A DNA stretch of 64,000 nt, taken from an uncultured Bacteroidota bacterium (GTDB lineage: Bacteria > Bacteroidota > Rhodothermia > Rhodothermales > DATKEJ01). The notes below the pieces were generated by a model. That model saw only the letters and a list, made by a program, of their open reading frames with translations, did no database searches and had not been told where the DNA came from. The stretch lies in NCBI GenBank assembly GCA_963768715.1, contig CAVYJC010000007.1:79466-143465 (forward strand). The letters run 5' to 3'. Of the stretch, positions 1 to 45,928 are shown in pieces (the stretch's first letter is position 1; each line of letters starts with the position of its first letter). Both the position numbers and the translations under genes were made by a program.

Positions 1-2640
1 GGCAGCTCCGCGATCCTGTTGCTCACCCAGAGCCCCGACAACCAAGTAATCCTCGCAAGTCGTAATCACGTGACCAAACAGATCGCCAGCTTGCCTGACG
101 GGCGCTACCAGCTGCTGTAGAAACTCGACGTTGACCCCATTGACCTCATAGACATAGACGGCGCCTCTGCTTTCGTCGTGGTATTCGGCGGCCACAAGAA
201 CGGTATTGTCATGAACGTCCACGACGTTTCCATACGCCATCTGGTCCAACTCACCGAACTGATCCGCGTCGAAGGGCAGTAACTTGCTCACGAAAGTCCA
301 CGATCCCGACGAATGCCCGTACACGTATGCGGCTCCATCGATAGGGCCTGCATCACTGTCACTTCGGTCTCCAACAACCAATAGGTCACCTTCGACTGCT
401 ACGGATCTTCCAAACTCGTCGCTGGGCTGCGTGGGTAGCAACACCTCACCGAAGCTCAACAGACCATTGGTCTCGCTGTACACGACAGCGCGTCCGCTCC
501 ATGTTCCAAAAACAGCTGTGGACCCGTCGTAATCAGCGGCGACACCAAAATGTGAGATACTCTGTCCACTCGGCGGCACGACTTCCTGGAGCTGAACCCA
601 ATTGTCGGATCCCCGAACAAACATGTACGCAGCTCCGTCATCGCCGCGTGCGTGTGCAGTCACTATCAGTTTCCCGCCATTCACGGCCAGCGCTTCCCCA
701 AACTCGTCACCTTGCTCGCCGTCGGCAGCATGGAGTTCCTCCACTTGTTGAAACAGGGGGTTGTCGTCATAGATCACGAGGATCTCGTCAGTGTCGGCGT
801 TCCCGTCCGTGTCAATGGCAGTCACGGTTATCACATTTGCGCCCGGCTGAAGAAGAATATCGTCGACGGTCCAGTCAGTGGTTCCGATCGCGACGCCGGT
901 ACCCCCCTTGTCGTTTGACCAGAAGATTTCTACCACCCCCACGTTATCAGTCGCGAATCCGGCAATGTCGACCGTCGGATCGGTTGTCCAGTATTCCTGG
1001 TAAAAAACGGGCTCGACAATCTGAACGCGCGGTCCCATAAGGCCTGGAGGACGCTCGCTAACCACAAAGGCAAGGACGGAAATTGCGGGATAGTCGGAGT
1101 TCGTCAGGAGTTGGTATCCCTGGCCATCGTCTAATTCGACCCATCCCTGTATCCATCCGTACGAGACGAAGGGGGCAGCCAACGCCTCGCCTTGGTACGT
1201 AACATCATCGAAGCTGTTCAGGCACAGTGGCGGATCGTATCGCTGTTCAGGCCATTCCCGCTGGTACGACTGGCCGGTAGTCGGATGGACAAAATCTCCA
1301 GTAGCCTTGAATCCTCGAATGCATACGTCGTCGGGACCGCCGTTCTCGACTGTAAACACGATTGGTAGATCCTCAGACGTGAAGGTGTTCACAACACCGT
1401 CAAACCGGATGCCATCTTCGATTTCTAGCGGCATGTCTGTCTCGACTTCCAAGACACCCAGATTGCTCGTGGACGACCATTCGCTAGTCCACGCCCGCAC
1501 ACTGTAAACCCCTATATCGCCGATCTGTGCGCTGGGTATCGAAAGAACGGCCTCGTCTTCACCGGGAATGGGCTGGCCCGCGCGGTACCACTGATACTGG
1601 ACGGACTCCTGGTCAGCCTTGCCAAGTTGCGTGGCTTCCGGACCGCTGATATATCCCCAAAGCGTCGAGACAATCTCAATTAGAGTGTCCCAGAACGTTT
1701 TTTGGCGTTCGGGGATTGTGACGTATGGATCGGTCGAAGGCTCGACGGGGACAACATGGTGGCTATCGATGAAATCGGACGGATCGAGAATTCCAATGTC
1801 TTTCATCGCTTGGTGGCTTCCAAAATAGCCTGGGGTGAACACGCCCCCCCAGTCATCTTTCCGGATCTCGAAATGCAGGTGGGGCCATGTATCTGGAAAA
1901 GCATCGGTGCCTTTGATATCTCCGATTCGCGCAATTGCCGTACCTCGACTGATCTGCGACTCGCTGATTACGGGTGGGATAATCTGACCATTCACATTTG
2001 CGGCGCCAGGGCTAGTGTCGAGTGCGGTAACGTGAGCATATATGGAATAGTAGATCTCTCCGTCACGCTCGTGCCTCAGAACAATCTGATATCCCCATGC
2101 GTTCGGATCGGACGAATCCACAACGCGGACCAGCGTACCGTCCGCCACTGCGTAAACACATTCCCCTAGATCGTAGTCTTGAGTACCAAGGTTCCAGTCC
2201 TCGCCACTGTGGTACGTTGAACCGTTTCGTGCACCAACATCCTGTGCGTTCCGCCAGGTACTATTGATGTCCGCTACATCTACTCCCTCTGTATTTGCCT
2301 CTCGCTTGTGCGGACCCTCTTGGTCTGGATACAGTGTGTTCACCTCATAGTCATCGCCAACGTCATAAGTGGTTGGCTTAAGCCCCCAGGGGAACTCAGC
2401 TACCGCTTGATACTCCTGCGCACTCTTCCATCCTCGGTTTCCGATCGGATACTCAAATCCGTCAGGGTTTTCAGACGGGTATTTGGTTGCGTTGGCGCAC
2501 GTCGATTTGTCCATGCTAAAGCTTGAACCCTTTGACAGGGTCGAGTTCGCATTTAGCACCTGTCCGGCAGCGAGCTCGGCTCCGGCTAGAACGATTGCCA
2601 AGACAAGCGGTGCCGTGAATAAACGCCACCTTGGGTCCAT
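1..2640 (-). CDS. Secreted multidomain protein, partial (start ATG at 2640, continues past the left edge): signal peptide, M23/LytM-type metallopeptidase domain, Ig-like/Big-like domains, FG-GAP-like repeats
   Basis: Absent from the ORF track because it is open at the window edge. My translation of the minus strand from 2640 gives MDPRWRLFTAPLVLAIVLAGAELAAGQ (signal). It continues with YHSGEDWN...GYQIVLRHE...YAHV...WPHLHFEIR (M23 zinc-ligand style motifs) and YQWYRAGQPIPGE...GVYSVRAW (Ig-like). It ends with repeated DEFG..(A/V)..G..L(I/V)V.A....GAAY(V/M) units (FG-GAP-like). No stop occurs over 880 codons. Confidence 0.8.
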   Translation of the reverse strand, partial: MDPRWRLFTAPLVLAIVLAGAELAAGQVLNANSTLSKGSSFSMDKSTCANATKYPSENPDGFEYPIGNRGWKSAQEYQAVAEFPWGLKPTTYDVGDDYEVNTLYPDQEGPHKREANTEGVDVADINSTWRNAQDVGARNGSTYHSGEDWNLGTQDYDLGECVYAVADGTLVRVVDSSDPNAWGYQIVLRHERDGEIYYSIYAHVTALDTSPGAANVNGQIIPPVISESQISRGTAIARIGDIKGTDAFPDTWPHLHFEIRKDDWGGVFTPGYFGSHQAMKDIGILDPSDFIDSHHVVPVEPSTDPYVTIPERQKTFWDTLIEIVSTLWGYISGPEATQLGKADQESVQYQWYRAGQPIPGEDEAVLSIPSAQIGDIGVYSVRAWTSEWSSTSNLGVLEVETDMPLEIEDGIRFDGVVNTFTSEDLPIVFTVENGGPDDVCIRGFKATGDFVHPTTGQSYQREWPEQRYDPPLCLNSFDDVTYQGEALAAPFVSYGWIQGWVELDDGQGYQLLTNSDYPAISVLAFVVSERPPGLMGPRVQIVEPVFYQEYWTTDPTVDIAGFATDNVGVVEIFWSNDKGGTGVAIGTTDWTVDDILLQPGANVITVTAIDTDGNADTDEILVIYDDNPLFQQVEELHAADGEQGDEFGEALAVNGGKLIVTAHARGDDGAAYMFVRGSDNWVQLQEVVPPSGQSISHFGVAADYDGSTAVFGTWSGRAVVYSETNGLLSFGEVLLPTQPSDEFGRSVAVEGDLLVVGDRSDSDAGPIDGAAYVYGHSSGSWTFVSKLLPFDADQFGELDQMAYGNVVDVHDNTVLVAAEYHDESRGAVYVYEVNGVNVEFLQQLVAPVRQAGDLFGHVITTCEDYLVVGALGEQQDRGAA

Positions 2641-2853
2641 GACGGGATTAGTACAGTTCGGACTTAACGATGTCCTAAACGTGCTCGGCTGAGTCTCTAA
2701 GGACGCTGAGGCAGGAGAATCATACGCTCTCCGGCTAGTGAGTGAGATGCCTAACGCGAGTGCCTCCAAGCGTTGGTCTCACGATGCACATAGAGGATAC
2801 GAAAAGACAGAATCGAAACACAATAAGAACGCGGAACACCTAGCACCGTGTCG

Positions 2854-3066
2854 CTACGGGCTGACATCCTCCTCATACGTCAGCCCAAACACCGTATCCG
2901 TCAGCCACTTCTTGAACGACTCGTTGTCGCTGAATTGCTTGAACAGCTGGCTGTCATCTTTCATGATAGCCAGCATGACTCGCCCTAAGGCCTTATCGTG
3001 CTCTATCCTGGCGTTTGCCTTGTCTGAGTTCTTTCGGGCGTTTTGATAGGCTGTATCGGCCGCCAC
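2854..3066 (-). pseudogene. Orphan C-terminal fragment of a type I restriction enzyme R subunit (HsdR, COG0610-type tail)
   Basis: The 70-aa ORF reads AYQNARKNSDKANARIEHDKALGRVMLAIMKDDSQLFKQFSDNESFKKWLTDTVFGLTYEE. This matches my memory of the conserved extreme C-terminus of roughly 1000-aa HsdR proteins. No helicase or nuclease part is present upstream, because the next gene ends 44 nt away. Confidence 0.6.
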
Positions 3067-3109
3067 TAATCTTCAAGGACCCTTTGCTTCCGACTCACAG
3101 GAAACGCCC

Positions 3110-3631
3110 TTACTTGTTTTCATCTGGGGAGTTTTCCAAACGAGAGGCATCAAAGTCCTTTTCAACGTTACGGAGAGCCGCCGTCACGTCGTCCAGATCA
3201 GCTTCCCAGATAACCCCATCAGCAAACCTAACTTTACTCACATAGGCAACCCCGGTATGAAAACTGAAGTCAGCGTATGAAGAAGAGACCCAAGTCCCCT
3301 TCCCGGTCTTTCCGGGACTCGTATCACTCATGTCTATTCCACCCGTCCTATCAAGGAATTCGTTGAAGATGCTAAACGAAACGAGGCCGATCTGACAAGC
3401 AACGATCTCTTTGTCGGACACATTCTGATACTCGACTGCATGATGGATTCCGTCCCTCGAATATGTACCCCCCTTTTGATAAGTGGCCACGTACTTAGTG
3501 ATCTTCATCGGCGCATCGGTCTGGCCAATGACGATCGACACAGGTTCTTGGGCTGTTGCCTCTGCGCGTAGATAGAGAATGGCCGACAGGGTGAGGACGG
3601 TTCGAAACATTACAAGCATGAACGTTTTCAT
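3110..3631 (-). CDS. Hypothetical secreted protein (signal peptide, no recognised domain)
   Basis: 173-aa ORF with N-terminus MKTFMLVMFRTVLTLSAILYLRAEATAQ. It is preceded by leader repeat copy A. Confidence 0.6.
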   Translation of the reverse strand: MKTFMLVMFRTVLTLSAILYLRAEATAQEPVSIVIGQTDAPMKITKYVATYQKGGTYSRDGIHHAVEYQNVSDKEIVACQIGLVSFSIFNEFLDRTGGIDMSDTSPGKTGKGTWVSSSYADFSFHTGVAYVSKVRFADGVIWEADLDDVTAALRNVEKDFDASRLENSPDENK

Positions 3632-3637
3632 GATTGA

Positions 3638-3703
3638 TCTCCATGGCTAGTAGAAATGCTTCCCCACTGGTTACGCGGGATTTCGGCGGCGGATTGGATC
3701 AAC
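3638..3703 (-). promoter_or_regulatory. Conserved roughly 65-nt upstream leader, copy A (paralogous to 4625-4688)
   Basis: Roughly 80 percent identical by eye to 4625-4688. Both copies end a few nt before the ATG of the downstream minus-strand gene. Confidence 0.5.
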
Positions 3704-3740
3704 ACGTCGAAACCTGTCACACCTAGTCAATTAACAGGAG

Positions 3741-4091
3741 TCAACGCTTCTTCTTCCGCGCGAGCAATCCGAAAACGATGGCTAGCAGCCCGAATACAAG
3801 CATGGGATCCATCACGTCGAGAACCTCGGGGCTTGGCGGAGCGGAAGGATTGTCGGCAATAACCAGGAGTATTTTCGCCAGAATGTAGATCGATATAAGT
3901 CCGCACGCCCACATCAGAAAGAGAAACACGAGCCGTGCTAGAGATCTGTTGGTCCGATGTTCTGCCTTTTTCCGAAGCGGATACCCGCAGTGCGGGCATG
4001 AATCAGCACGATCGGAAATTTGAGCGCTGCATTCGGGACAGGTTGAAAGAGCCACGGGCCTATTCTCCTTATGGATCATCAGCTCGCACAA
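3741..4091 (-). CDS. Zinc-ribbon membrane protein (N-terminal CxxC...CxxC, C-terminal TM helices)
   Basis: Contains ALSTCPECSAQISDRADSCPHCGYPL followed by two hydrophobic segments. It is a paralogue of the N-terminus of 4696..5328. The start may be the internal Met at 4079. Confidence 0.6.
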   Translation of the reverse strand: MCELMIHKENRPVALSTCPECSAQISDRADSCPHCGYPLRKKAEHRTNRSLARLVFLFLMWACGLISIYILAKILLVIADNPSAPPSPEVLDVMDPMLVFGLLAIVFGLLARKKKR

Positions 4092-4617
4092 GAAGGAACT
4101 CGGCCGGATCCCCTCGTCGATTCATTCCCTCGGCTTTCACAAAAATGGCCCGATGCTGACGACTGTAGGTTATCGTGTGAATACCCCAATCACCCTCCTG
4201 GCCACCGCGAGGTTCGCCCCGAACGGGAGTACCGGACTCAGTATACCGGTACTGCCCAGTGAACTGCAGACTGCCAAATTCTGATACTGGGATCGTACTC
4301 TCCCAACTTCCACGATTTGATTTGGCACGTAGATACAGACGAGGACGCAGTCGAACGATATTCCAAGGTGAAAATTCTACAACGGTGACCGCCTCTTCAT
4401 TCAGTTCACCTGCTAGACTTTGCGGGTGATAGACACCATCGATCCCTTTGAGATCGGAAAAGAACATTCGGACTCGAAATATGAGTCCAATCAGAAGTGC
4501 CGCTAAGATGGTCGCGGCAAGAGAGATTCGGAATTCTTGAGTTTTGGCGCAGACCGCCACAACGACTGGAAGGGCGACGACAATCAACACCGCAGTCGCC
4601 GCGCGAAGGGCCTTCAT
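4069..4617 (-). CDS. Hypothetical membrane protein (two N-terminal TM helices plus a soluble C-terminal domain)
   Basis: 182-aa ORF beginning MKALRAATAVLIVVALPVVVAVCA...ILAALLIGLIF. It is preceded by leader repeat copy B. Confidence 0.55.
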   Translation of the reverse strand: MKALRAATAVLIVVALPVVVAVCAKTQEFRISLAATILAALLIGLIFRVRMFFSDLKGIDGVYHPQSLAGELNEEAVTVVEFSPWNIVRLRPRLYLRAKSNRGSWESTIPVSEFGSLQFTGQYRYTESGTPVRGEPRGGQEGDWGIHTITYSRQHRAIFVKAEGMNRRGDPAEFLLVRADDP

Positions 4618-4624
4618 GGTGGAC

Positions 4625-4688
4625 CTCCAATGGCTAGTGGGAATGCCTCACCGCTCATTACGCGGATTCGGGCGGTGGACTGAATCAA
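4625..4688 (-). promoter_or_regulatory. Conserved roughly 65-nt upstream leader, copy B
   Basis: See 3638-3703. Shared blocks include CTCCA(A)TGGCTAGT, AATGC, TTACGCGG, GGCGG and ATCAA. Confidence 0.5.
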
Positions 4689-4695
4689 AGGATAC

Positions 4696-5328
4696 TCAAT
4701 GCCCACGCGCATATCTCTTGAGAGCTCTAACCTCTGGATCGGCCGAACTCGTAGCGGCTTTCGTAGACGACCCGTTGGGAGCTGCCGAGAACGCCTCCGC
4801 TGTCGCATCAACCGACAATACCATTCCGCTTGGTTCAGTTCGGCTTCCAGAAACCAACCAGACACCGATGGTCTTCTGATCCTCTAATCCTGGACAGTCC
4901 AGATAGGCTGCCACATACTGCGAGTTTGCATGACTGGAAGATTTCAATGACCAACCGCGCGTTGTCTGGCAACCATGGTTAATGTGGCCTCCACCGGATT
5001 CAATCATGTACTGAATATACTCGATCTGCTTTGCTGTTGCTTGGTGGACGTTCAACGGTGGAACGGCCGGCCCCTGAGCGCTCTCGGGCCTCGACGGCTT
5101 CGCGGTCTGTGTTGTCGCCCCCGGAGGCTCCGGTGCTTTTCCCTCATTGCTGTTCTTGGATAAGACTATTACCGCGAGGACCACTCCGATGGCTAATAGG
5201 GCCACTTTGAATTTCCCGGTATTCGGATATTCGGGCTTGGCTGGCTCAAATGGGCAGCCGCAGTGTGGACACTGCACTGCGCGATCAGAAACCTGACTGC
5301 CGCATTCGGGACATTTTGATAAGGCCAT
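4696..5328 (-). CDS. Zinc-ribbon protein with one TM helix and an extracytoplasmic domain
   Basis: Begins MALSKCPECGSQVSDRAVQCPHCGCPF, followed by a TM segment (FKVALLAIGVVLAVIVL) and a 140-aa tail. Confidence 0.6.
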   Translation of the reverse strand: MALSKCPECGSQVSDRAVQCPHCGCPFEPAKPEYPNTGKFKVALLAIGVVLAVIVLSKNSNEGKAPEPPGATTQTAKPSRPESAQGPAVPPLNVHQATAKQIEYIQYMIESGGGHINHGCQTTRGWSLKSSSHANSQYVAAYLDCPGLEDQKTIGVWLVSGSRTEPSGMVLSVDATAEAFSAAPNGSSTKAATSSADPEVRALKRYARGH

Positions 5329-5675
5329 GGTTTCTTTCCTCTAGTGGATTGGCTATTTCAACTTCACCACACCAGCCACCTTCCCCACAATCTTCAGATC
5401 AACCTCCAGGCCAGTGAGGCTTGATTAATACTTGTCGGCGGTGGTCATCCGTCAGCAAAAGATAGGCGAAATGTTGTTGACGACTGGTTCAGACCATGGA
5501 GACTCCCTTGAGCGACCGAAGGACATCGAGTGCGTGGTTGGCCCTCAACACGATTCGAAGATTCAGACAAAGTCAAGTGGCCCAGCCCCGAAACCTCAAC
5601 CAGGACCTTAAACCATATATAAAAGGCAATATCCATAACCAATTATGATTATGGGCCTTATATCGATGCTTCAAG

Positions 5676-5748
<73 letters not shown>

Positions 5749-5800
5749 TCGTAGGAACGAAGAATATAGGGAAGGCAACCGGGTTGCGACCAAGAGGTTT

Positions 5801-5843
5801 CGTGAATGAGGAATGAGAAATAATGAACGAGGAATGGCTTCCG
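5801..5843. repeat. Left inverted arm of heptamer units (GAATGAG GAATGAG AAATAAT GAACGAG GAATGG...) flanking the four-helix-bundle gene
   Basis: Aligned by hand to the reverse complement of 6304-6346 it gives 32/43 matches. The inner 21 nt match 20/21 (GAACGAGGAATGGCT[T/G]CCGC). Confidence 0.8.
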
Positions 5844-5863
5844 CCGGCTACTTTCAATCAGCC

Positions 5864-6235
5864 TCAGCGACCAATCTTCCGACGCTCGTTTCTCTTAGCT
5901 GTGCGTGCCGACGCAGCAAAAACGGCCAGAAGTTCATTTGCCTCGTGAATGAGGCTGTCCGCTGCGTCTCGCTTGGAGCAGCCTGAACTGACAATCAATT
6001 CCACCCAGTAGAGTGATTCCTCGAGCTCCTGAAGTGCCGTTTCAACCTTACTGATGAACTCCTTCCGCGATCGGGCTCGGCACGCCTCACTATAGTTGGC
6101 TCCAACCGAGGTTGCGCTCCTCACCAACTGCTGTCTTGCCGTTCGCATCAGAATGGTATCGGGCTCTGACTGCGCAAAATTGATTACGCCGAGACTGAAT
6201 TTGCGCGTCCTGTTCCGAAGATTCTCTCCCTTCAT
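5864..6235 (-). CDS. Four-helix-bundle protein (23S rRNA intervening-sequence protein family, TIGR02436/PF05635-like)
   Basis: From the Met at 6235 the protein reads MKGENLRNRTRKFSLGVINFAQS...QLVRSATSVGANYSEA...SRKEFISKVETALQELEESLYWVELI. These are the characteristic motifs as I remember the family. The 52-codon upstream extension in the track (to 6391) is translation of the repeat arm. Confidence 0.75.
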   Translation of the reverse strand: MKGENLRNRTRKFSLGVINFAQSEPDTILMRTARQQLVRSATSVGANYSEACRARSRKEFISKVETALQELEESLYWVELIVSSGCSKRDAADSLIHEANELLAVFAASARTAKRNERRKIGR

Positions 6236-6303
6236 GACCACCGGTTTACCACAAAGACACCTGACGGGCGAAATCATAACCTCCGCTTGGCCAAATAAAG
6301 GGA

Positions 6304-6346
6304 CGCGGCAGCCATTCCTCGTTCCGTATTCATTGTTCATCATTTC
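6304..6346. repeat. Right inverted arm of heptamer units flanking the four-helix-bundle gene
   Basis: Reverse complement of the 5801-5843 arm. A third partial copy (TCCTCGTTCCGTATTCA) lies at about 7362-7378. Confidence 0.8.
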
Positions 6347-6480
6347 AGTTCTCGATTGACACCTCTCCTCTTCACCCCCCCCAACAACCACAATAATCCA
6401 CCGCCCGGAACCGTTCTCTTCATAAAACCTTTACAATAGATACGCAAAGCCGCTCGCCCTCCAACTAACCGCGATTTGCC

Positions 6481-7137
6481 ATGGCCCTCCCCAATCGCCC
6501 CAACAAGTTTCGCCGGCTGTACCCGATCCTGATCGAGGTCGGATTCGTAGCATCCCTCCTCCTCGTCATCGGTGCGTTTCGAGCCAATTACCGGACCGAC
6601 ACAGGTCTTGATTTGACCAGTACGCCCATCGAGCCGATCGAGCTCGTCCCGATCGTTCCGACCAACATTACACCAAAACCGCCTCCCCCACCGATGCCGC
6701 CCGTTCCGGTTGAGGTGCCTAACGACGAAGTCCTCGACGACGAACCGATAGATATCGATTCGGAGATTCACATCAATGAAACGCCTCCCGTCCCGCCACC
6801 GCCGCCCCGAGTACCCACCGTGGACAACAGTCCAGGCGAAATCTTCGTCGTCGTCGAAGACTATCCGAAACCAATCGGCGGGATGGAAGGAATCATGCGT
6901 CGCCTCCAGTACCCCGAAATCGCCCGAAAAGCCGGCATCGAAGGACGTGTCACGGTTCAGTTCGTGATCGAGAAGGACGGAACCGTCTCGAATCCGCAGG
7001 TCCTCAAGGGCATCGGCGGCGGATGTGACGAAGCAGCAGTAAAAGCTATCCGCGATACGCGATTCACTCCGGGAATGCAACGAAAGAAACCCGTGAGGGT
7101 GAGGATGTCGATTCCCATCGTCTTTAAAATGAATTAG
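6481..7137 (+). CDS. TonB-family energy transducer (N-terminal anchor, Pro-rich spacer, TonB C-terminal domain)
   Basis: Has a TM segment (YPILIEVGFVASLLLVIGAF) and PKPPPPPMPPVP / PPVPPPPPRVP proline-rich tracts. The C-terminus is YPEIARKAGIEGRVTVQFVIEKDGTVSNPQVLKGIGGGCDEAAVKAI...RFTPG. Confidence 0.9.
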   Translation: MALPNRPNKFRRLYPILIEVGFVASLLLVIGAFRANYRTDTGLDLTSTPIEPIELVPIVPTNITPKPPPPPMPPVPVEVPNDEVLDDEPIDIDSEIHINETPPVPPPPPRVPTVDNSPGEIFVVVEDYPKPIGGMEGIMRRLQYPEIARKAGIEGRVTVQFVIEKDGTVSNPQVLKGIGGGCDEAAVKAIRDTRFTPGMQRKKPVRVRMSIPIVFKMN

Positions 7138-7178
7138 GATTGAGGATTGAGGATTGAGGATTGAGGATTGAGTATTGG
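7137..7178. repeat. (GGATTGA)x5 plus one degenerate unit, starting on the last base of the tonB stop codon
   Basis: Counted directly: perfect units at 7137, 7144, 7151, 7158 and 7165, then GTATTGG. Confidence 0.95.
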
Positions 7179-7231
7179 GGGCATTGCCACTCTTCCTCGC
7201 CTCCGGTCCCGCAGTGAGGGCTCACCCCTGC

Positions 7232-7386
7232 TGTTTGACTGTTTGCTGTTTGCTGTTTGCTGTTTGCTGTTTGGTATTTGCTGTTTGGTATTTGCTGTTT
7301 GGTATTTGGTGTTTGGTATTTGGTGTTTGGTATTTGGTGTTTGGTATTTGGTATTTCCGTTCCTCGTTCCGTATTCAGCATTCATC
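7232..7386. repeat. Heptanucleotide tandem array of about 22 units (T[G/A]TTTG[C/G] core)
   Basis: Sixteen perfectly phased units run from 7240 to 7351. The same 7-nt register continues through TATTTCC GTTCCTC GTTCCGT ATTCAGC ATTCATC to 7386. Confidence 0.95.
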
Positions 7387-7448
7387 GCCCTCCGCTCCGT
7401 ACATTGCTGCCTTGTTGTCATTTCGTCACCAGGTTGTAAGGCATCCCC

Positions 7449-8276
7449 GTGGGTAAGGAGACCAGCAAGAGCCAACGTTTGACGCCCGAGCTGTATCAAC
7501 AGGAATTGATCAAGCTCCAGGAAGAGTTGGTCATGCTGCAGGAGCACATTCGAAGAAAAGGCCTCCGCGTGGCGGTCATCTTCGAAGGACGCGACGCATC
7601 CGGGAAAGGCGGCGTCATTAAGCGGATCACGCAGCGACTCAATCCGCGAGTCGTGAGAGTCGTGGCGCTGGGTGTGCCTACGGAACGCGAGGTCGGAGAG
7701 TGGTACTTCCAGCGATATGCCCCGCACCTGCCGGCTGCAGGGGAAATGGTACTCTTCGACCGCAGTTGGTACAACCGCGCCGGCGTGGAACGCGTGATGG
7801 GATTCTGCACCGACAATCAGTATCGCGAGTTCCTTCGCTCATGCCCAGAATTCGAACGGATGCTGGTCCGGTCGGGCATCACGCTGATCAAGTACTGGTT
7901 CTCGATCAGCGCCGAGGAGCAACAGCGCAGGCTCGAGCAGCGCATGCGGGACCCAAAACGACGCTGGAAGATCAGCGACATTGATCTCGAGTCACGACGC
8001 CGATGGGTCGATTATTCGCGCGCCAAAGACGCCATGATGATGTACACAGACATCGACGTCGCTCCCTGGTACGTTGTCGACGCCGATCACAAGAAGGCGG
8101 CACGATTGAACTGCATGCACCACCTGGTCAGCCAGATTGACTACGATCATCTTGCGCCGGATCCCGTGGAAATTCCTGAGATTCGGGAGGATCCCGGGTA
8201 TCGTCGCCCGCCGATCGACAGCCAGAAGTGGGTGCCGGCTGTTTACGGAAGAAGCAAGAAGCGGAATGAGGAGTGA
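7449..8276 (+). CDS. ppk2: Polyphosphate kinase 2 (PPK2 family)
   Basis: Contains FEGRDASGKGGVIKRITQRLNPR (Walker A) and WYFQRYAPHLPAAGEMVLFDRSWYNRAGVERVMGF, typical of the PPK2 core. It has a GTG start. Confidence 0.9.
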   Translation: MGKETSKSQRLTPELYQQELIKLQEELVMLQEHIRRKGLRVAVIFEGRDASGKGGVIKRITQRLNPRVVRVVALGVPTEREVGEWYFQRYAPHLPAAGEMVLFDRSWYNRAGVERVMGFCTDNQYREFLRSCPEFERMLVRSGITLIKYWFSISAEEQQRRLEQRMRDPKRRWKISDIDLESRRRWVDYSRAKDAMMMYTDIDVAPWYVVDADHKKAARLNCMHHLVSQIDYDHLAPDPVEIPEIREDPGYRRPPIDSQKWVPAVYGRSKKRNEE

Positions 8277-8319
8277 GGAGTGAGAATCGTTAATTCTTTG
8301 CTAATCGCTAATTGCTGAA
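8264..8319. repeat. Heptamer array (GAATGAG GAGTGAG GAGTGAG AATCGTT AATTCTT TGCTAAT CGCTAAT TGCTGAA) beginning inside the last codons of ppk2
   Basis: Counted directly in a 7-nt register. The ppk2 stop TGA (8274-8276) lies inside unit 2. Confidence 0.85.
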
Positions 8320-8411: not shown

Positions 8412-9188
8412 ATGAATTCATCATTCATCGTTCTCCTCGTCCTCATGTCGTACGTGCCCGCCCTGGCGCAGGACGGAAATCGGTTCGTGAGATGGACCTT
8501 CCAGGACGGTTTGAACCTCATCGCCCACAAAACGCCCACCATGCTCCTTCTCGGCGCCGGTGGCGCGGTCATCATCGCCGGAGGGGCACAGGTGGATAAA
8601 GACATCAGCGAGGAGGTCCAGAAGCAGTTCGACGGCCACGAATTCTACCTCTCCGCCGCGAATGCGCTGGGTACGCCGCCCGCCGTGCTCGGACCGGTCG
8701 CTCTCTTCGGTCTGTCCACTGCGATCGGGAACCGGCGCCTGCAGGACGCCGCGTTTACCTCGCTTGAGGCCATCGCGTATGCGGGCACTACCACGCTCGT
8801 CGCGAAAGAGGTGATCGGACGCTATCGACCCGCCGACAGTGAGGGCGCGAAGAAGTTCGATCCTTTCTCCGGCAATACGTCGACTCCCAGCGGACATGCA
8901 ACCATCGTCTTTGCCATGTTCACGCCTTTCGTGTACTACTATCCACATCCTGCGACGTACGCACTCTTTGCTGTGGGAGTCACCACCGATTTGGCCCGCA
9001 TCGCGCTCAACCGGCACTGGTCTTCCGACGTCGTCGTGGGCAGCGGTATCGGTTTCCTCATGGCGCGGTATCTGTCAAGACGGCACTTGTCTGAGGCGGC
9101 CGTCAGTTCGGCGGTCTCGATCACGCCGCTTATTTCGCCGAACGCCGCGGGGGTGCATCTGACCCTGGCGCTCAATCGACCGCAGTAG
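8412..9188 (+). CDS. PAP2-superfamily phosphatase (secreted or membrane-associated)
   Basis: The signal-like start MNSSFIVLLVLMSYVPALAQ is at 8412. PAP2 motifs are present: KEVIGRYRP, PSGHAT and SDVVVGSGIG. The upstream extension to 8319 is unlikely. Confidence 0.8.
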   Translation: MNSSFIVLLVLMSYVPALAQDGNRFVRWTFQDGLNLIAHKTPTMLLLGAGGAVIIAGGAQVDKDISEEVQKQFDGHEFYLSAANALGTPPAVLGPVALFGLSTAIGNRRLQDAAFTSLEAIAYAGTTTLVAKEVIGRYRPADSEGAKKFDPFSGNTSTPSGHATIVFAMFTPFVYYYPHPATYALFAVGVTTDLARIALNRHWSSDVVVGSGIGFLMARYLSRRHLSEAAVSSAVSITPLISPNAAGVHLTLALNRPQ

Positions 9189-9230
9189 GTTCGGGGTTCG
9201 GGGTTCGATGTTCGCGACTTGGGGTTCGGT
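9189..9230. repeat. Heptamer array GTTCGGG GTTCGGG GTTCGAT GTTCGCG ACTTGGG GTTCGGT immediately after the PAP2 stop codon
   Basis: Counted directly. The first unit starts 1 nt after TAG (9186-9188). Confidence 0.9.
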
Positions 9231-9599
9231 AAAACGACAGAGCCGGGCGTGAACCGAGCGACGTACCCGTTTTGAATTTCATGAAACCGTTGAAACGGTT
9301 TCTGAGGTTGGTGCCACGCCTCAACCCCGGGTTGAAACCCGGGGCTACGAAAAGCCCCGAACAAGTTCGGGGCGTCGCGGGCTCCGCGTGGGCAGCCGTG
9401 GCAGCTGGGCCCGCGCGCTTGCTAAAGACTACGCTTGCCAATCCCGAACGCGTGCCGCGAAGCGGCGCACGGAGGAACCTCCGCGGGCGTGACAGATCCG
9501 CAGATAGACCGGCGGGCCGATAGACCGCCCGGGACCTTCCCGCCCCGTGTAACCGTGACATAGGTACGACACAACGTGTTCACCAACGAAAGAGGAAGC

Positions 9600-10289: not shown

Positions 10290-12950
10290 CTAGGGCGGTG
10301 AATCGCCTGCCTTACGCTCGCTCGCGGCAGGCACTTGGACTTCGGACCCCGGACTTCGGACCTCGGACGCATATACGCGATCCACGCCCCGTTTTGACAA
10401 CCAGGTGAACCAGAACAGCCCGAGCAGGAAGCCGCCCGATCCGATCCACGTCCATTCGCCGCCTCCGCCCACGTACATCATGGCCGCCGCTCCGATGGCG
10501 AGCGCCCCGGCCGCGAGTACGCCCAGCCGGCTGACGCCGGTTTCCAGCTCCTGCTCCTCTTTCTCTTCCTCCTCCGGCTTGAGCATCCCGGCCTTGTCCA
10601 GTCCGGTCTCTTCGGCCGTCGTGAGCATGCCCTTGAGCATTAACAGGAAGCGATGCCAGCTGAAACCGATAACGGTTTCCTTTGGGTGGACGAGTACTAC
10701 GGGACACTCCACATTGCGGGCGATACTGACCGGCCTGTTTGCGAAGAAACGCCGTTTGCGCCTCCAGTAGTTCGACGCCACGTCGAGTATCAGTGCGTCG
10801 TATCCCTCCGCTCCATCGATCACCGCTCGGAACGGCGACTGATTTGCAGTCTGTTTCAGGGACACCCACTCGCTGTCTAGACCATGCTCATCGGCGAACT
10901 CGTCCACGGTCTTTCGGAGATCGTCCATGAACGTCTCGCGGACCTCGTCGTCGACATCGGGATGGAACACGTGCAGGACGTCGATGTCCGAACGGTTGCC
11001 GCCGGCAGCGTATTGCGCGGCGCGAAGAGCGAACGCTACCTCCGAGGGTTCGTCTACCGGTACGAGCATCCGCTTGAACGGCGTCTCGGCGATCTTCTGG
11101 ATCACCAGTACGTCGCCGTTCACTTCCTGAATAATCCGATCGATATTGTGCCCAATAAGGCGTTTCGGATCCCGCGGCTTCCCGCGCCAGCCCATCACCA
11201 AAAGGTCTGCTTTCGTCTCCATTGCCATGTCGACGATTGCCTGGGCCGGCGAGTGGGCAATGCGAATAAAAGCCTCTGCTTCGATGTCCTGAGGAACCTG
11301 TTCGAGTGCCTTGTCGATGAGGGATTTCCAATCTTGCGCTCGGGAACGAGCCGCCGAGAGCGGAAGCTGCTTCGGGACATGAATGACATGGAGGAGCACC
11401 AGCGATCCGTCGTTTCGACGGGCCGCTTCCACGGCCGGCGGAATCAGCGTCTCGACGGATTCGGGTTTGGCAATGGATACCAGCACGGTGTATTCCTTGT
11501 CGGTCTGAAACGGTGCGGCTTGTTTGAGACGAGCAACGAGCGGCGTCCTCTCTTCCTCCGACGCGTGGCCGCGCGCATAAAAGTAGTAGAGCCCGAATCC
11601 GATCCCGATCCATGCCAGCGAGAAGTACCACGCGATCGCCGAATAGTTGAACATGAAGACGGCCAGAAAGAGCTTCGTCACGATGCCGATGATGGGAATG
11701 ATGGGAAAGAAGGGCATCATGTAACCGTAGCGGAGGCGCGTGCCGTACTGTCTGCGCAAACTGATCACGGCGATGTTCACCATCAGAAACAACAGGAGGA
11801 ACATGATGTCGGCGGCCGAGGCGACGTCCTGGATTGGAATGACGACCGCCATAAAAAGGATGAGCGCGCCCGTAAAGAGCAGAGCTTTGTAGGGCGTTTT
11901 TGTGCGATCGTGCACGGCCGCAAAGGCGTCGGGAAGATTCCGGTCTCTCCCCATCGCGAAAGAGACCCGCGTGGATGAATACGTCGTCGCATTGAGCGCA
12001 CTCATCGTCGAGAACAACCCGCCGATCAGGAGCATGACGGTGCCCAGAGGCATGAACTGGCGAGCCGCCTCGACGAGGCCCAACTCCTTGTTCGCCCCAA
12101 GCCAGACATAGGTCGCCTGACCGCCCGGTGGATCGACCGCGCCAATGGCGACAAATGCCACGAGCATGTAGATCGGGACAACAATCGCCAGCGAGTAGAA
12201 GACCGCCTTCGGAATGGTCCGGCGCGGATCACGGGTCTCCTCCCCCGCCTGGACAATAATTTCGTACCCCTCGAACGCGATGAACGTCAATCCCATCGCA
12301 CTCAAAATGCCGGGAAAGCCCTCCGGCGTAAAGTCCTCGAAGTGCTGAAAGTGCGTTGACGGCTCCTTGAAGAGGATCCACATTCCGCTGGCGACAAAGA
12401 GGAGCAGGATCGTCAGTTTGGCGAGCGTGACGATGTTGCCGATCAGACCCGTCTCGGAGGAGCCGCGATAGTTGATGTATAGAAAGGCCAGGATGATCAG
12501 GATGGCGAGCCCCCTCTCCACCACGCCCGTTCCTATACCGAAAAACGATACGTCGAACTCGGACATGACGAGGCGCAGGTAGGAGCCAAAAGCAAGACCA
12601 TAGAGACTCCCCGCAACGGCGTGCGCGAACCAGCTCATCCATCCTGCGAGGAAGGCGCTCGGCCCTGGGAGCCCCTCCTTGACCCAGAGATACCCGCCGC
12701 CGGCCTCCGGAATTGCCGACCCCAATTCGGCGTAGACCATCGCCGTGAAGATGGTGATGATGCCGTTAAGGGAGAACGAGAGGATAAGGGCGGGACCGGC
12801 CGCACCGGCCGCGATCCCGGTCAAAACAAAAATGCCCGCACCGACCATGGCCCCGACGCCGATCATCGTCACGTCCAGGAGTCCCATCGTTCGACTCAGC
12901 CCGACGCGGGCTCCCCGACCATTTTCGGAAGAGGCTGACGACTGCGGCAA
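10290..12950 (-). CDS. APC-superfamily amino acid permease fused to two universal stress protein (USP) domains and a C-terminal two-TM tail
   Basis: The N-terminal 470 aa are a 12-TM permease (GLLDVTMIGVGAMVGAGIFVLTG). Two USP-like blocks follow (VLVSIAKPESVETLIP...LLVMGWRG and MLVPVDEPSEVAFALR...VVLVHP), then GVLAAGALAIGAAAMMYV / GGFLLGLFWFTWL. It has a TTG start. The last 27 codons run through a heptamer array. Confidence 0.8.
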   Translation of the reverse strand: MPQSSASSENGRGARVGLSRTMGLLDVTMIGVGAMVGAGIFVLTGIAAGAAGPALILSFSLNGIITIFTAMVYAELGSAIPEAGGGYLWVKEGLPGPSAFLAGWMSWFAHAVAGSLYGLAFGSYLRLVMSEFDVSFFGIGTGVVERGLAILIILAFLYINYRGSSETGLIGNIVTLAKLTILLLFVASGMWILFKEPSTHFQHFEDFTPEGFPGILSAMGLTFIAFEGYEIIVQAGEETRDPRRTIPKAVFYSLAIVVPIYMLVAFVAIGAVDPPGGQATYVWLGANKELGLVEAARQFMPLGTVMLLIGGLFSTMSALNATTYSSTRVSFAMGRDRNLPDAFAAVHDRTKTPYKALLFTGALILFMAVVIPIQDVASAADIMFLLLFLMVNIAVISLRRQYGTRLRYGYMMPFFPIIPIIGIVTKLFLAVFMFNYSAIAWYFSLAWIGIGFGLYYFYARGHASEEERTPLVARLKQAAPFQTDKEYTVLVSIAKPESVETLIPPAVEAARRNDGSLVLLHVIHVPKQLPLSAARSRAQDWKSLIDKALEQVPQDIEAEAFIRIAHSPAQAIVDMAMETKADLLVMGWRGKPRDPKRLIGHNIDRIIQEVNGDVLVIQKIAETPFKRMLVPVDEPSEVAFALRAAQYAAGGNRSDIDVLHVFHPDVDDEVRETFMDDLRKTVDEFADEHGLDSEWVSLKQTANQSPFRAVIDGAEGYDALILDVASNYWRRKRRFFANRPVSIARNVECPVVLVHPKETVIGFSWHRFLLMLKGMLTTAEETGLDKAGMLKPEEEEKEEQELETGVSRLGVLAAGALAIGAAAMMYVGGGGEWTWIGSGGFLLGLFWFTWLSKRGVDRVYASEVRSPGSEVQVPAASERKAGDSPP

Positions 12951-12994
12951 AACGGGGGTTCTTTAGTGGTGGTGGACTCTACGAAGAACAGCTC

Positions 12995-13071
12995 ACTTCA
13001 AATACCAAACTTCAGACACCGAATATTGGTCCGGGGTTCGCACCCCGCACCCCGCACCCCGCACTTCGCAC
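12995..13071. repeat. Heptamer array of 11 units that changes flavour while keeping register (ACTTCAA ATACCAA ACTTCAG ACACCGA ATATTGG TCCGGGG TTCGCAC CCCGCAC x3 TTCGCAC)
   Basis: Counted directly. The first 20 nt are identical to 21131-21150. Confidence 0.9.
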
Positions 13072-13095
13072 GGACTGGCGCCAGGACCTCGGTTC

Positions 13096-14244
13096 TTAAA
13101 AAAAGTACTGCGCCACCACGAAATACACATTCCCGACCCTCCCGTACTCCGTGTCGCCGGCTCCGAAGAAGATGTACGCGCTGGCAGACAGTTCGAGGTT
13201 CTCCTTGGCCGACCAGAGAATCGCCGGTCCAGCCAGGCCGCTGCCGTCGTTAGCGTTCAGTATCCCGTAAAAGTTGCCCGAGACGAGTGGTGAAATGTTC
13301 TTGGATACCGATGCTGCGGCATAATATCGACCAAGGTTAAGAGTTTGTCCAGTAAGGACTTGTGAGAAGTCGTAGTCCGCACGATTGGTCGTTCCCGCGC
13401 CGTTGTAGTGCAATTCCACGAACGTGTAGTAGTCCCCGGGAAAATTGTAATCGGCGTTTACTACAGCGCGGATGAAATCCTTTCCCATGCTGCTGGTGAA
13501 CGCCGCTTCGCCACGGAAACCCGCGTTCCCGAGGTAGCCTGCATAGTCGCCGCCGAAGACCCAGGCATCCCGGATTCGCCCGCCCATGGCCGAAACGTCG
13601 AATTCGCCGAGATGGGAGCTGAGGCGCCCGGCGACGCTGGATCGTTCGGAATTCCTGGAGGGGGCGAAGGCTGCTTCCAGCCGGCTCATCGGGCCAAGGC
13701 CATACTCGACATAGGCCGCATCGACGCCGGCTTTTTCGTCACGTTCGATGGCGACCGGACTCACGGGATTGAGCACGTCGGTCGGCGTCCATACGAATCC
13801 TGTACCCCAGGCTATGCGCTGTCTTCCGACGACGGCCCGCACCTTTCCCACCGACGCGGTAGCGGTCAGTCGAAAGAGATTCTGGCTGATTCGGTAGTCG
13901 TCGGTTGACTCAATGGTCCAATCCAGATCGGCGAACTCATCGAAGACGACGTTCCGGCTTGCCCGATAGTCGGCGCTTTTCAGGAAGCTGCCGGCCAGCA
14001 CTTCCGTGTCGAGCCAGACCTCAGTCGAGACGTGCGACCCGATACCGACAGAAAACTGGTTACGTGACCGGAGGGTGTTCAGGAAGAAGGCGTCCCCACT
14101 GACGACCGATGAGCCGCGCGTGGCAAGATCCTTGACGTAGCCGTCGAACTGAACGTCCAGCGGTTGTCCCTTCACGGAGGCGAGGCCGTTCAGCAGGATC
14201 GCGAGAGCGACGGCGCTTCTCCTATAAATGACGATGACTTTCAT
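13096..14244 (-). CDS. Outer-membrane beta-barrel protein of the ABC/LolA-like cluster
   Basis: Has the signal MKVIVIYRRSAVALAILLNGLASVKG, alternating beta-strand-like sequence and a C-terminal ...YFVVAQYFF aromatic terminus typical of OMPs. The start at 14244 or 14262 is uncertain. Confidence 0.6.
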   Translation of the reverse strand: MKVIVIYRRSAVALAILLNGLASVKGQPLDVQFDGYVKDLATRGSSVVSGDAFFLNTLRSRNQFSVGIGSHVSTEVWLDTEVLAGSFLKSADYRASRNVVFDEFADLDWTIESTDDYRISQNLFRLTATASVGKVRAVVGRQRIAWGTGFVWTPTDVLNPVSPVAIERDEKAGVDAAYVEYGLGPMSRLEAAFAPSRNSERSSVAGRLSSHLGEFDVSAMGGRIRDAWVFGGDYAGYLGNAGFRGEAAFTSSMGKDFIRAVVNADYNFPGDYYTFVELHYNGAGTTNRADYDFSQVLTGQTLNLGRYYAAASVSKNISPLVSGNFYGILNANDGSGLAGPAILWSAKENLELSASAYIFFGAGDTEYGRVGNVYFVVAQYFF

Positions 14245-18205: not shown

Positions 18206-18510
18206 TACGATTTGGAGTCGATTTGCAGTTGTACGCCGCGTTGGGCGAGAGCCTGAATCTACGAGGCGCGAGGTCGTCGGTTACCAACTTCGCAGAAGTT
18301 CCATATGAGCGCAGAGCGGCTTGAGCGCAGAGCGCAGAGGGAGAGCGGGTCGCCGCCACGCAATTTGCGTTTTGCATCCGTCTACGCACGATGTCATCTC
18401 GCTTCGCCGGACCGGTGGCTCTCATGATTGAATTGCGCCGAAACTCACGCAAAGTCCGCAAATACCCGGTAGATCCCTTCGAGTCCGGCACGTACCCTTC
18501 AACGGAGGAT

Positions 18511-18566
18511 CATTCTGCATTCTGAACTCTGAATTAATTCTTAATTCTTAATTATTAATTACTTGC
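18511..18566. repeat. AT-rich heptamer array (CATTCTG CATTCTG AACTCTG AATTAAT TCTTAAT TCTTAAT TATTAAT TACTTGC) abutting the HPS-like gene start
   Basis: Counted directly in a 7-nt register. Confidence 0.85.
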
Positions 18567-19261
18567 ATGCGTCCAGATCGTCCAAATATCCCTCGACGTC
18601 ACCTCCATCGACGAAGCGCTCGAAACGGCCGAAATGGCGCTGCGGGCGGGAGTTGACTGGCTCGAGGCCGGCACCCCGTTAATTATTGCGGAAGGCATGC
18701 ACGGTGTACGAGCGCTCAGAGACCGGTTCCCTGAAACTCCGATCGTTGCCGATCTGAAAACGATGGACGGCGGCTGGCTCGAGGCCGAAATCATGGCGAA
18801 AGCCGGCGCGACCCAGGTGGTAGTTATGGCCAGGGCTCATGAGGAGACCATCCGTTGCGTCGTACAGGCGGGCAAGGACCTCGGCGTGGAGGTCATGGGC
18901 GACAATCTCGGCTCTGAAGACATGATCGCCGGCGCCAAGCGTCTGGAAGATTTCGGGATGCGACTACGTGATTCATCACATCGGATACGACGAGCGTCGC
19001 GGCATCGCTAAACGAGGCGAGCCGGCCCCGAATCCCCTCGACCAGCTTCGCGAGATCGTCGAAGCAGTCTCCGTGCCCGTACAGGCCGTGGGTGGATTGT
19101 CGATCGAGCAGGCGGTTGCGACCCCCTCCTACGGCGCCCCGCTCGTAGTGCTCGGCGCCCCACTGGTCATCGATGCCGATGCATTTCGAACGGCTTCCGG
19201 CAACGTCGAAGACTCCCTCCGACTGATTTGTCAGAAAGTCCACGCGTACGGAGACGTTTGA
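18567..19261 (+). pseudogene. 3-hexulose-6-phosphate synthase / 3-keto-L-gulonate-6-P decarboxylase family gene, disrupted by two apparent 1-nt frameshifts (or sequence errors)
   Basis: The conserved N-terminus VQIVQISLDVTSIDEALETAEMALRAGVDWLEAGTPLI is in the frame of ORF 18634..19011. It has no in-frame start after the stop at 18556, and the ATG at 18567 is one base out of frame. The C-terminal half (DYVIHHIGYDERR...) is in the frame of ORF 18968..19261. The switch is near 18956-18962. Confidence 0.6.
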
Positions 19262-20338: not shown

Positions 20339-20351
20339 CGACTTACTGACC

Positions 20352-21405: not shown

Positions 21406-21412
21406 TGAGGCT

Positions 21413-31962: not shown

Positions 31963-31969
31963 TTGGACG

Positions 31970-45923: not shown

Positions 45924-45928
45924 AAGAA

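Follow-up and report, generated by a model that had tools for sequence, protein, structure and literature searches.

Short tandemly repeated repetitive (STRR) sequences with a unit of 7 nt have been used as fingerprinting markers of cyanobacteria for decades, since about 1990. Tandem heptamers have also been described in other bacteria. According to PMC4679880 and PMC4692102, Mrazek et al. (2007) showed that heptamers predominate among the long simple repeats of many bacteria, and suggested as the cause polymerase slippage tied to a contact of 7 nt. MacGregor (2015) reported intergenic heptamer arrays in five Bacteroidetes and discussed candidate heptamer-binding proteins (PMC4679880), and for STRR hairpins located between hupS and hupL of cyanobacteria, a role in transcript stabilisation or termination has been suggested (PMC2670836). 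In Coxiella burnetii, the intervening sequence (IVS) of the 23S rRNA gene carries an open reading frame (ORF) of the PF05635 family in the loop of a long stem of terminal inverted repeats; the stem contains tandem GACAGAT heptamers of strain-variable copy number and is cut by RNase III at the first repeat (PMC4990558). Here we analyze heptanucleotide arrays in a 64,000-nt stretch of the 800,160-bp contig CAVYJC010000007.1 (hereinafter the window) that belongs to a metagenome-assembled genome (MAG; GCA_963768715.1), the proteins of which are labelled 'Rhodothermales bacterium' at NCBI, with a focus on the spacer between the tonB and ppk2 genes (positions 7137 to 7386). The arrays belong to the class of bacterial heptanucleotide long simple repeats of the cyanobacterial STRR type; the kind is already known, and the lineage is new. 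The source genome has a GC content of ~58% and is of the Bacteroidota type; the initial annotation of this DNA was right to describe the arrays as STRR-like and the host as a high-GC, Bacteroidota-like bacterium.

With moderate confidence, we interpret the arrays as STRR-class repeats that arise by slippage and template switching beside stop codons, some of them being kept as arms of RNA stems, and the tonB-ppk2 spacer as a composite that includes arms of the type enclosing S23p (PF05635) genes. The added value of the present analysis is the short-range evolutionary picture of such arrays and their association with S23p genes.

Excess, location and turnover of period-7 arrays

The window was scanned for tandem repeats of periods 3 to 13 with a score of at least 10, using Markov shuffles as the null, and Tandem Repeats Finder (TRF) served as a second, independent repeat caller. 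Period 7 is represented by 15 arrays (529 nt) and period 9 by a single array, with none of periods 3-6, 8 and 10-13; Markov shuffles of the window yield ~0.2 arrays, and TRF scores reach 176. The initial annotation had made a predominance of period 7 over periods 6 and 8 a test of its reading, and the counts of 15 versus 0 and 0 agree with it; furthermore, TRF arrays are located at or overlap all the other positions of the window where it had placed 7-nt arrays (Table 1).

The arrays were compared with two control sets. The first consists of 80 loci (1.3 Mb) from diverse phyla that came from a PPK2 genome-collection scan, in which matches 60-72% identical were obtained from many phyla and none from relatives, PPK2 being too conserved and too scattered. 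These loci contain 17 period-7 arrays, 11 of which belong to one Acidobacteriaceae MAG (L053); the remaining 79 loci (~1.3 Mb) have ~0.3 period-7 arrays per 64 kb, and the density in the window is ~50 times this diverse background. The second set comprises 842 kb of mostly gut Bacteroidales contigs (L083-L162) from a TonB metagenome scan, for which the best among the matches listed is 39% identical, and contains 58 period-7 arrays (~4.4 per 64 kb), three arrays of period 8 and none of period 5. The array units in these contigs are AT-rich, e.g. AATTGAA, AATCTAA and ATTTTCA. No arrays were detected in 20 kb of a family-level relative (L170-L172; TonB 50% identical), and exact-protein look-ups for tonB and the gene at 31970-33088 returned no match. 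The counts in the control sets indicate that the preference for heptamers is widespread, yet very uneven among lineages.

All arrays of the window are located in spacers or on stop codons, and none of the 22 array segments lies in the interior of an ORF, though 85% of the window is coding. Long simple sequence repeats (LSSR) made of heptamers would be expected in non-coding DNA only, as 7 is not divisible by three. The arrays are non-coding and, as had been recognised at the outset, the ORFs called across them are artefacts. Likewise, the arrays begin on or beside stop codons as first described: they typically start at a stop codon or run over it, and most of them follow stop codons. The statement that they occur at most gene boundaries has to be corrected, given that arrays are present in 13 of the 42 spacers (31%), with 12 of these 13 situated between 5.8 and 32 kb. 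A role as three-frame stop-codon devices was rejected because only three of the nine stop-adjacent arrays supply stop codons in all three frames. In an Rfam scan of the window, the threshold was reached by tRNA-Phe alone, and no rRNA was found.

The MAG origin of the window, along with a short-read contig that stops at the edge of the palindrome at 31742-31964, raises the possibility of an assembly artefact, to which we give next to no credence. Four independent assemblies from different samples (L082, GCA_049579085.1; L165, JGI 3300004004; L163, Logan SRR22807978; L173, JGI 3300036925) carry arrays of the same or unit-shifted lengths, which refutes this reading. In particular, L082 is 98.9% identical to the window over 19678-22129, with identical array lengths. 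Nor are the arrays confined to the window: a 14.6-kb region of the sister assembly from outside it (L174) contains (CGCACCC)x3, which is the unit of 13039-13071 in the window, and a second array. None of the three outcomes that, according to the initial annotation, would have refuted the arrays was therefore obtained.

Comparison with close relatives reveals how the arrays change. In three contigs of a congeneric species (L166, L167 and L168), the gene order S23p-tonB-ppk2-PAP2-DUF421 is kept at ~80% nucleotide identity. The array at the PAP2 stop codon has six GGTTCGG-type units in the window versus five in L166, a difference of 7 nt, and at the ppk2 stop codon L166 has a two-unit proto-array only. 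The array at the stop codon of the permease-Usp gene is absent from L166, where the protein ends in ...VDRVAER*, compared with ...VDRVYASEVRSPGSEVQVPAASERKAGDSPP* in the window, i.e. the conserved VDRV is followed by 3 residues in L166 and by 27 in the window (region 10290-10375). The array thus lies over the ancestral stop codon, and the annotated protein ends in a 27-residue tail derived from repeat and 3'-untranslated region (3'-UTR) sequence. Among strains, the L165 version of the spacer at 21131-21405 is shorter by precisely two units (14 nt) and by one copy of a 16-nt repeat, and in L163 the outer arms of this spacer are retained around a different core; in L173, a strain with 99.6% identity, ~70 nt of the left interior of the palindrome at 31742-31964 are replaced, with its arms and right half unchanged. 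Arrays therefore vary by whole units and come and go at the 3' ends of genes, and the length polymorphism between strains that the initial annotation had suggested looking for exists. For annotation, this means that array-encoded C-terminal tails, like the ORFs across arrays, are artefacts.

Replication slippage and intra-hairpin template switching would make and resize the arrays at the point where coding constraint first ends, beside stop codons. Copy-number change could also act as phase variation, altering the promoter spacing or the reading frame of neighbouring genes. The differences in copy number among strains and the single altered C-terminus would fit this explanation, and some arrays are indeed located upstream of start codons (7240-7386; 18511-18566). 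However, most arrays come after stop codons, 5' coding regions are free of them, the genes on either side are housekeeping rather than surface genes, and array lengths are equal in 99%-identical assemblies, so that phase variation appears very improbable.

Architecture of the tonB-ppk2 spacer

The tonB-ppk2 spacer contains two arrays of different unit types that are separated by a unique core. Examination of the sequence bears out most of the original description: the (GGATTGA)x5 array begins at 7137, the final G of the tonB stop codon TAG, and the 16 phased T[G/A]TTTG[C/G] units are followed by five further units in one register up to 7386; the unique core is present as well, with a length of 53 nt (7179-7231) instead of 50. 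The left array (7137-7178) belongs to the GGAWTGA unit family, which is also found at 5804-5843 and 8264-8284. All 16 units at 7240-7351 fit T[GA]TTTG[CG] in a single register, which differs from that of the first array (offset of 103 nt between 7137 and 7240); they are preceded by an out-of-register unit, TGTTTGA, at 7232-7238, and TRF detects a 14-nt higher-order period in this array with 96% matches. Neither the remainder of the window nor any fetched locus contains a second copy of the core, and it has no Rfam match. The last five units (7352-7386) duplicate the right arm of the S23p cassette nearby, with 26 of 30 nt identical to 6313-6344, an 18-nt exact match to the cassette arm, and complementarity to 5808-5837. 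Both ends of the spacer thus match the cassette arms, the left array representing the left-arm family and the right end the right-arm copy.

In the congeneric species (L166-L168), the tonB-ppk2 spacer is ~75 nt long and contains no arrays. The three contigs align to positions 6405-7139 and 7377-8284 of the window with nothing between, and the breaks are clean, delineating a segment of 237 nt that is absent from the orthologous spacer. Heptamer-like sequences occur at the junctions of this segment too, with GGATTAG at the stop codon and GCATTCA TGATTCG at the right-hand junction, suggesting that the flanking arrays grew from native proto-repeats. We infer that the spacer is a lineage-specific 237-nt composite in which left and right S23p-family arms enclose a unique core and (TGTTTGS)16, an array that expanded recently. 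The arms at its two ends would be of the family that forms the terminal inverted repeat of the adjacent S23p cassette.

The best matches of the PPK2 protein come from Chloroflexia (72%), and in L169, a further Rhodothermales contig, there is no ppk2 between tonB and PAP2. Inverted heptamers of the CATTC/GAATG type are present on both sides of ppk2, in the window and in L166, and ppk2 itself may accordingly be an inserted gene.

The TTTG-type units recur elsewhere: TTTG is repeated every 7 nt at four loci, with 32 matches versus 0.17 expected. The Bacteroidetes promoter motif TAnnTTTG was considered and rejected, since the TTTG units, as judged by eye, do not have the TAnn spacing. Another explanation is that the array is a platform for a protein with a 7-nt footprint, such that many copies of a cold-shock-domain protein load onto the 16 TTTG units of the ppk2 leader and prevent folding of the RNA. 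The unit (G/C)T(G/A)TTTG matches six of the seven positions of the Bacillus subtilis CspB site GTCTTTG/T (PMC1904285), the binding of one CspB per heptamer and cold-shock proteins as candidate binders of heptamer repeats are discussed in PMC4679880, and the unpaired arrays at the co-directional loci 7240 and 12995 read TTTG in the sense direction upstream of the next gene. We nevertheless regard such a platform as quite improbable, given that the window contains no cold-shock gene, the other unit families do not resemble the CspB site and only two to three loci are of this type, most arrays are located at 3' ends or in duplex arms, and the specificity of CspB is weak.

Inverted arms and the S23p association

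Other unit families are likewise shared among loci, with GGAWTGA-type units at five loci and CGCACCC in both the window and L174, and the arrays are probably more than filler. The initial annotation favoured a process or protein that measures 7 nt over one that recognises a motif. Measurement of 7 nt has a precedent in the literature; the absence of a motif is contradicted by the recurrence of unit families and by inverted pairs that share variable units. Conversely, each of the cores located between arrays occurs just once across the window and the fetched loci, so that the array elements are not miniature inverted-repeat transposable elements (MITEs), and a dispersed-element reading was rejected because no core has a second copy.

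The strongest case of inverted arrays is the 223-nt palindrome at 31742-31964, for which the minimum free energy is -141 kcal/mol (z = -16) and the arms of 46 nt are 93% complementary. The outer 31 bp of the arms consist of the series AACAGCA, AACACCA, AACATCA, AATACCA on one side and its exact complementary mirror image on the other. Such a mirrored series of variable units in inverted arms cannot arise by independent slippage. The right end of this palindrome fits GTTRRRY by eye, the left end is unlike RYYYAAC, and there is no integrase or cassette array, so an integron attC site was rejected. In the spacer at 21131-21405, the inverted arms are 83-84% complementary and the fold of 21125-21415 has z = -3.6; folds in relatives have z = -4.2 (L163), -7.4 (L173) and -10.4 (L169). 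In L053, the Acidobacteriaceae MAG, all five array pairs that were checked fold, with z = -5 to -9.4 and often one mismatch per 7 bp. L053 is a second, unrelated lineage, with 11 arrays in 20 kb and no S23p gene in these 20 kb, and its hairpins (5-140, 2634-2712, 4255-4358, 13045-13157 and 13486-13566) begin within a few nt of stop codons. Many of the arrays are arranged as inverted pairs, which are predicted to form long hairpins that abut stop codons.

Some other features of the window involve palindromes. Genes for SbcC-like (AAA_23/SMC_N) and SbcD-like (Metallophos, identified from L081) proteins are present at 46826-50818, which deserves mention as this genome tolerates long perfect palindromes. 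An 18-nt tandem repeat at 45927-45975 (AAACCTGTCAGGTCTTGA, 2.7 copies), with a small palindrome in each unit, exactly spans the gap between convergent stop codons.

The inverted arms bear on another explanation, namely that the arrays are neutral slippage debris without function, produced by replication that slips preferentially by 7 nt and leaves loops too large for mismatch repair, with hairpins and recurring units as by-products. Consistent with this possibility are the whole-unit indels and rapid gain and loss among close relatives, the many unrelated unit sequences, the failure of half of the arrays to fold, the dominance of period 7 also in unrelated Bacteroidales and in the Acidobacteriaceae MAG, and the slippage hypothesis itself as described in PMC4679880 and PMC4692102. 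However, debris would not be expected to show variable units in mirror order in arms that are 93% complementary, conserved outer arms around interiors that turn over, unit families common to separate loci, or S23p genes tightly bracketed by heptamers in six phyla, and we therefore consider it rather unlikely as a full account.

The S23p gene of the window, ~800 nt upstream of the tonB-ppk2 spacer, encodes a 123-aa protein of the four-helix-bundle '23S rRNA IVS protein' family, with PDB 2RLD as the closest solved structure; the family is homologous to Avd, the accessory protein of diversity-generating retroelements (PMC10053308). The gene is enclosed by two arms of 40 nt each that consist of heptamer units and are 80% complementary, and the cassette sits between tRNA-Phe (5675-5748) and tonB, not in 23S rRNA. 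In Rhodothermales contigs, all four S23p genes have heptamer arrays on both sides (cassettes at 5805-6344 in the window, 101-598 in L166, and 245-739 and 1463-2020 in L169), and in L169 an S23p gene with heptamer hairpin arms is located directly downstream of tonB. Plasmid S23p genes retrieved with tblastn (loci L176-L191) come from Nostoc, Planktothrix, Dolichospermum, Aulosira, Gloeocapsa, Pseudanabaena, Ca. Chlorohelix, Bernardetia, Treponema and Monoglobus, and all 14 that were examined show a period-7 signal beside the start and stop codons, which is weakest in Bernardetia. Altogether, the signal is present on both flanks of all 18 S23p genes examined, from six phyla (weak in three), and in 15 of the 18 the flanks are inverted beyond every shuffle, whereas no more than 0.6% of random 360-nt windows drawn from the plasmids concerned are bracketed by arrays. 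A single S23p gene has 5 of the 7 arrays of a Planktothrix plasmid within 300 nt, and 4 of the 9 arrays of a Nostoc plasmid stretch are similarly close to one such gene. The unit families of the arms track S23p subfamilies; in particular, the cassettes in the spacer upstream of tonB differ between the window and L166 both in S23p subfamily and in their arms. We found no generalised link between S23p genes and heptamer flanks in the literature.

Several observations on the surroundings of S23p genes can be added. In L167, a DDE transposase is found in place of the S23p cassette upstream of tonB. Positions 1-6400 of the window have a lower GC content (52-55%) and mostly unannotatable ORFs, and this region, which ends at tRNA-Phe, may be an integrated island. 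XisH/XisI genes directly follow the S23p cassette in L187 (N. punctiforme pNPUN01) and are located elsewhere on a Nostoc plasmid in L183 (7363-8090); the taxa with TAACTGA repeats and those with XisH/XisI are similar in range, as pointed out by MacGregor.

The S23p association suggests a further explanation, under which the arrays are terminal inverted repeats of a selfish, IVS-like hairpin element whose autonomous form carries an S23p (Avd-like) gene, and ORF-less hairpins and composites such as 7137-7386 represent copies that are empty or have decayed, or derivatives that are mobilised in trans. The consistent bracketing of S23p genes, with inversion in 15 cases, the clustering of arrays at single S23p genes on the two plasmids, the parallel change of arms and subfamilies, including the replacement upstream of tonB between the window and L166, the position of the L169 cassette downstream of tonB, the match of the spacer ends to the cassette arms, and the heptamers in the Coxiella IVS stem are all compatible with mobility. 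Against it, no S23p remnant was detected in other spacers of the window by tblastn or with a 17-sequence hidden Markov model (HMM; best E-value 0.15), the cores are unique rather than dispersed, no S23p gene was found in 2.2 Mb of other fetched loci, including L053 and the gut Bacteroidales, and the TTTG-type and GC-rich arrays have no cassette counterpart. To our knowledge, no transposition mechanism has been described for S23p. A mobile cassette is unlikely to be the general source of these arrays, which far outnumber S23p genes, and the S23p-heptamer association is well supported as a pattern and unproven as a cause. S23p cassettes may occur both in 23S rRNA and between ordinary or defence operon genes in Cyanobacteriota, Bacteroidota, Chloroflexota, Spirochaetota, Bacillota and, from the literature, Pseudomonadota. 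A tentative generalisation, possible but short of probable, would be that STRR-type arrays, rather than arising generically by slippage, are the stems of widespread IVS-like hairpin cassettes, with the S23p-carrying form being autonomous and the ORF-less ones empty or decayed, and that S23p is the protein partner of heptamer repeats.

These explanations are not mutually exclusive. Under the reading that we prefer, i.e. STRR-class repeats with some arrays kept as stem arms, the arrays would most likely act in RNA, as stem elements of operon spacers and 3' UTRs, by analogy with the RNase III-cut stems of 23S rRNA IVS and the transcript-ending or transcript-stabilising STRR hairpins. Several results weigh against it. 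Folding of the tonB-ppk2 spacer itself gives z = 0.15, i.e. no significant hairpin, and there is likewise no significant fold in the spacers 12951-13095 and 18206-18633 or in the arrays at 9186-9232, 13035-13075 and 10296-10375. None of the arrays in the window coincides with a canonical terminator of the stem plus U-tract type, the total number of predicted sites being at the level of shuffles, or with a sigma-70 promoter. The tblastn and HMM searches mentioned above found no S23p remnant in the tonB-ppk2 spacer either (0.15 being the best E-value in any spacer), and only 2 of the 22 array segments of the window flank an S23p gene. Moreover, slippage is deduced from the sizes of indels, and the sample consists of one 64-kb window and short contigs of relatives.

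The remaining arrays of the window are diverse in context (Table 1). In the ppk2-PAP2 spacer, the ppk2 stop codon TGA sits within the second unit of the array. Immediately downstream of the PAP2 stop array, a non-coding block at 9233-9379 is 95% identical to that of the congeneric species, compared with ~80% for the flanking genes; it contains a canonical minus-strand terminator (9373-9354), has no Rfam match, and may represent a small RNA or a small minus-strand gene.

Table 1. Coordinates of heptanucleotide arrays and associated features in the 64,000-nt window
Feature	Position	Strand	Remarks
(GGAWTGA)-type left arm of S23p cassette	5804-5843		GGAWTGA family
S23p cassette	5805-6344	-	ORF 5864-6235; PF05635 and TIGR02436; inverted heptamer arms 5805-5844 and 6305-6344
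tonB ORF	6481-7137		Pfam TonB_C; stop TAG at 7135-7137
(GGATTGA)x5 and degenerate unit GTATTGG	7137-7178	+	begins on last base of tonB TAG; TRF
237-nt extra segment	7140-7376	no strand	absent from orthologous tonB-ppk2 spacer of congeneric species
Unique core, 53 nt	7179-7231	no strand	between both arrays
TTTG-type array	7232-7351	+	16 in-phase T[G/A]TTTG[C/G] units at 7240-7351
Five units: TATTTCC, GTTCCTC, GTTCCGT, ATTCAGC, ATTCATC	7352-7386	+	continues register of 7240-7351 array
ppk2	7449-8276		Pfam PPK2, E = 1e-103
GAATGAG, GAGTGAG, GAGTGAG, then TGCTAAT, CGCTAAT, TGCTGAA	8264-8319	+	fills 42-nt ppk2-PAP2 spacer
(GGTTCGG)-type array	9188-9229	+	begins on PAP2 stop codon
(GGACYYC)x5	10337-10371	-	over ancestral stop codon of permease-Usp gene
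CAAA-type array (12995-13022) and (CGCACCC)x4 (13039-13071)	12995-13071	no strand	between two minus-strand genes
Three arrays (GAGCGCA; ATTCTGA; TTAATTC)	18307-18566	no strand	divergent 428-nt spacer; no significant fold
CAAA-type left arm, TTTG-type right arms, two cores, 16-nt repeat	21131-21405	+	left arm begins at SDR stop
(GGTCCGT)x3	22857-22877	no strand	convergent spacer
223-nt near-perfect palindrome	31742-31964	no strand	fills gap between convergent stop codons
(AATTAAG)-type array	60619-60711	-	~14 nt downstream of M24 peptidase stop; sense strand reads TTCTTAA

Comparison with described repeat systems

The present findings extend STRR-type heptamers to Rhodothermales and document their short-range evolution, including anchoring at stop codons, change by whole units, kept arms with replaced interiors, and one overwritten stop codon. 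We found no mention of heptamer arrays in Rhodothermales or Acidobacteria in the literature that was searched. The view of the initial annotation that no equivalent description exists has to be abandoned in its general form, as the predominance of heptamers, slippage, the five Bacteroidetes cases and the STRR hairpins are already on record (PMC4679880, PMC4692102, PMC2670836).

Several classes of intergenic or variable elements resemble the arrays only in part. Intrinsic terminators consist of a GC-rich stem followed by a U tract, and no predicted site of this kind falls on an array. Contingency simple sequence repeats lie in the 5' coding part or between the promoter elements of a variable surface gene, whereas the neighbours of the arrays are housekeeping genes. 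Repetitive extragenic palindromic (REP) sequences, bacterial interspersed mosaic elements (BIMEs) and MITEs are, like the arrays, extragenic and hairpin-forming, are often found just after stop codons and are present in many copies; however, these are dispersed copies of one conserved sequence, whereas the arrays have no more in common than the 7-nt period and the unit family.

Described heptamer repeats are closer. The TAACTGA-type repeats of Beggiatoaceae, Cyanobacteria and five Bacteroidetes (PMC4679880) are also intergenic, with indels in 7-nt steps and mixed heptamers in one spacer, but they are mostly located just upstream of start codons, replacing the Shine-Dalgarno sequence, whereas TAACTGA does not occur in the window at all and most arrays follow stop codons. 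The GGGAATC and GGGGA(C/T)T repeats of Xanthomonas and Nostoc (Rehm et al., 2015; PMC4692102) are non-coding and near ORF ends, with some inverted pairs, and differ in length among close species; no function was found for them in that study. Their units are G-rich and quadruplex-forming, with a preferred length of four units, whereas most units in the window cannot form quadruplexes.

With the cyanobacterial STRR sequences, the arrays share tandem 7-nt units, several unit families per genome, a non-coding location and inverted copies that form intergenic hairpins; such hairpins are found at other arrays of the window and not in the tonB-ppk2 spacer itself. The differences concern the phylum and GC content of the host, the units, given that none of the canonical STRR units CCCCAGT, TTGGTCA, CAACAGT and GGGGATT occurs in tandem in the window, and the position of the arrays, which here typically abut stop codons.

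The 23S rRNA IVS provides the closest parallel to the S23p cassette at 5805-6344, which has the same layout of an ORF and enclosing inverted repeats; unlike the IVS, which is situated in helix 25 or 45 of 23S rRNA, this cassette and the other 17 lie between protein genes, and the tonB-ppk2 spacer consists of arms without an ORF. The S23p link, if causal, would provide a concrete protein and an RNA-processing step (RNase III) for probing the role of heptamer repeats.

Finally, the arrays show all the features of heptanucleotide LSSR, being tandem beyond chance, in excess at period 7, non-coding and polymorphic by whole units. To the extent that the work of Mrazek et al. is described in the two papers cited above, it agrees with the present results in the prevalence of period 7 over periods 5-11, the intergenic bias, the scattered lineages, the whole-unit changes and the proposed slippage; that work is statistical and, on the same basis, does not cover the anchoring at stop codons, the paired inverted arms or the link to S23p genes seen here.

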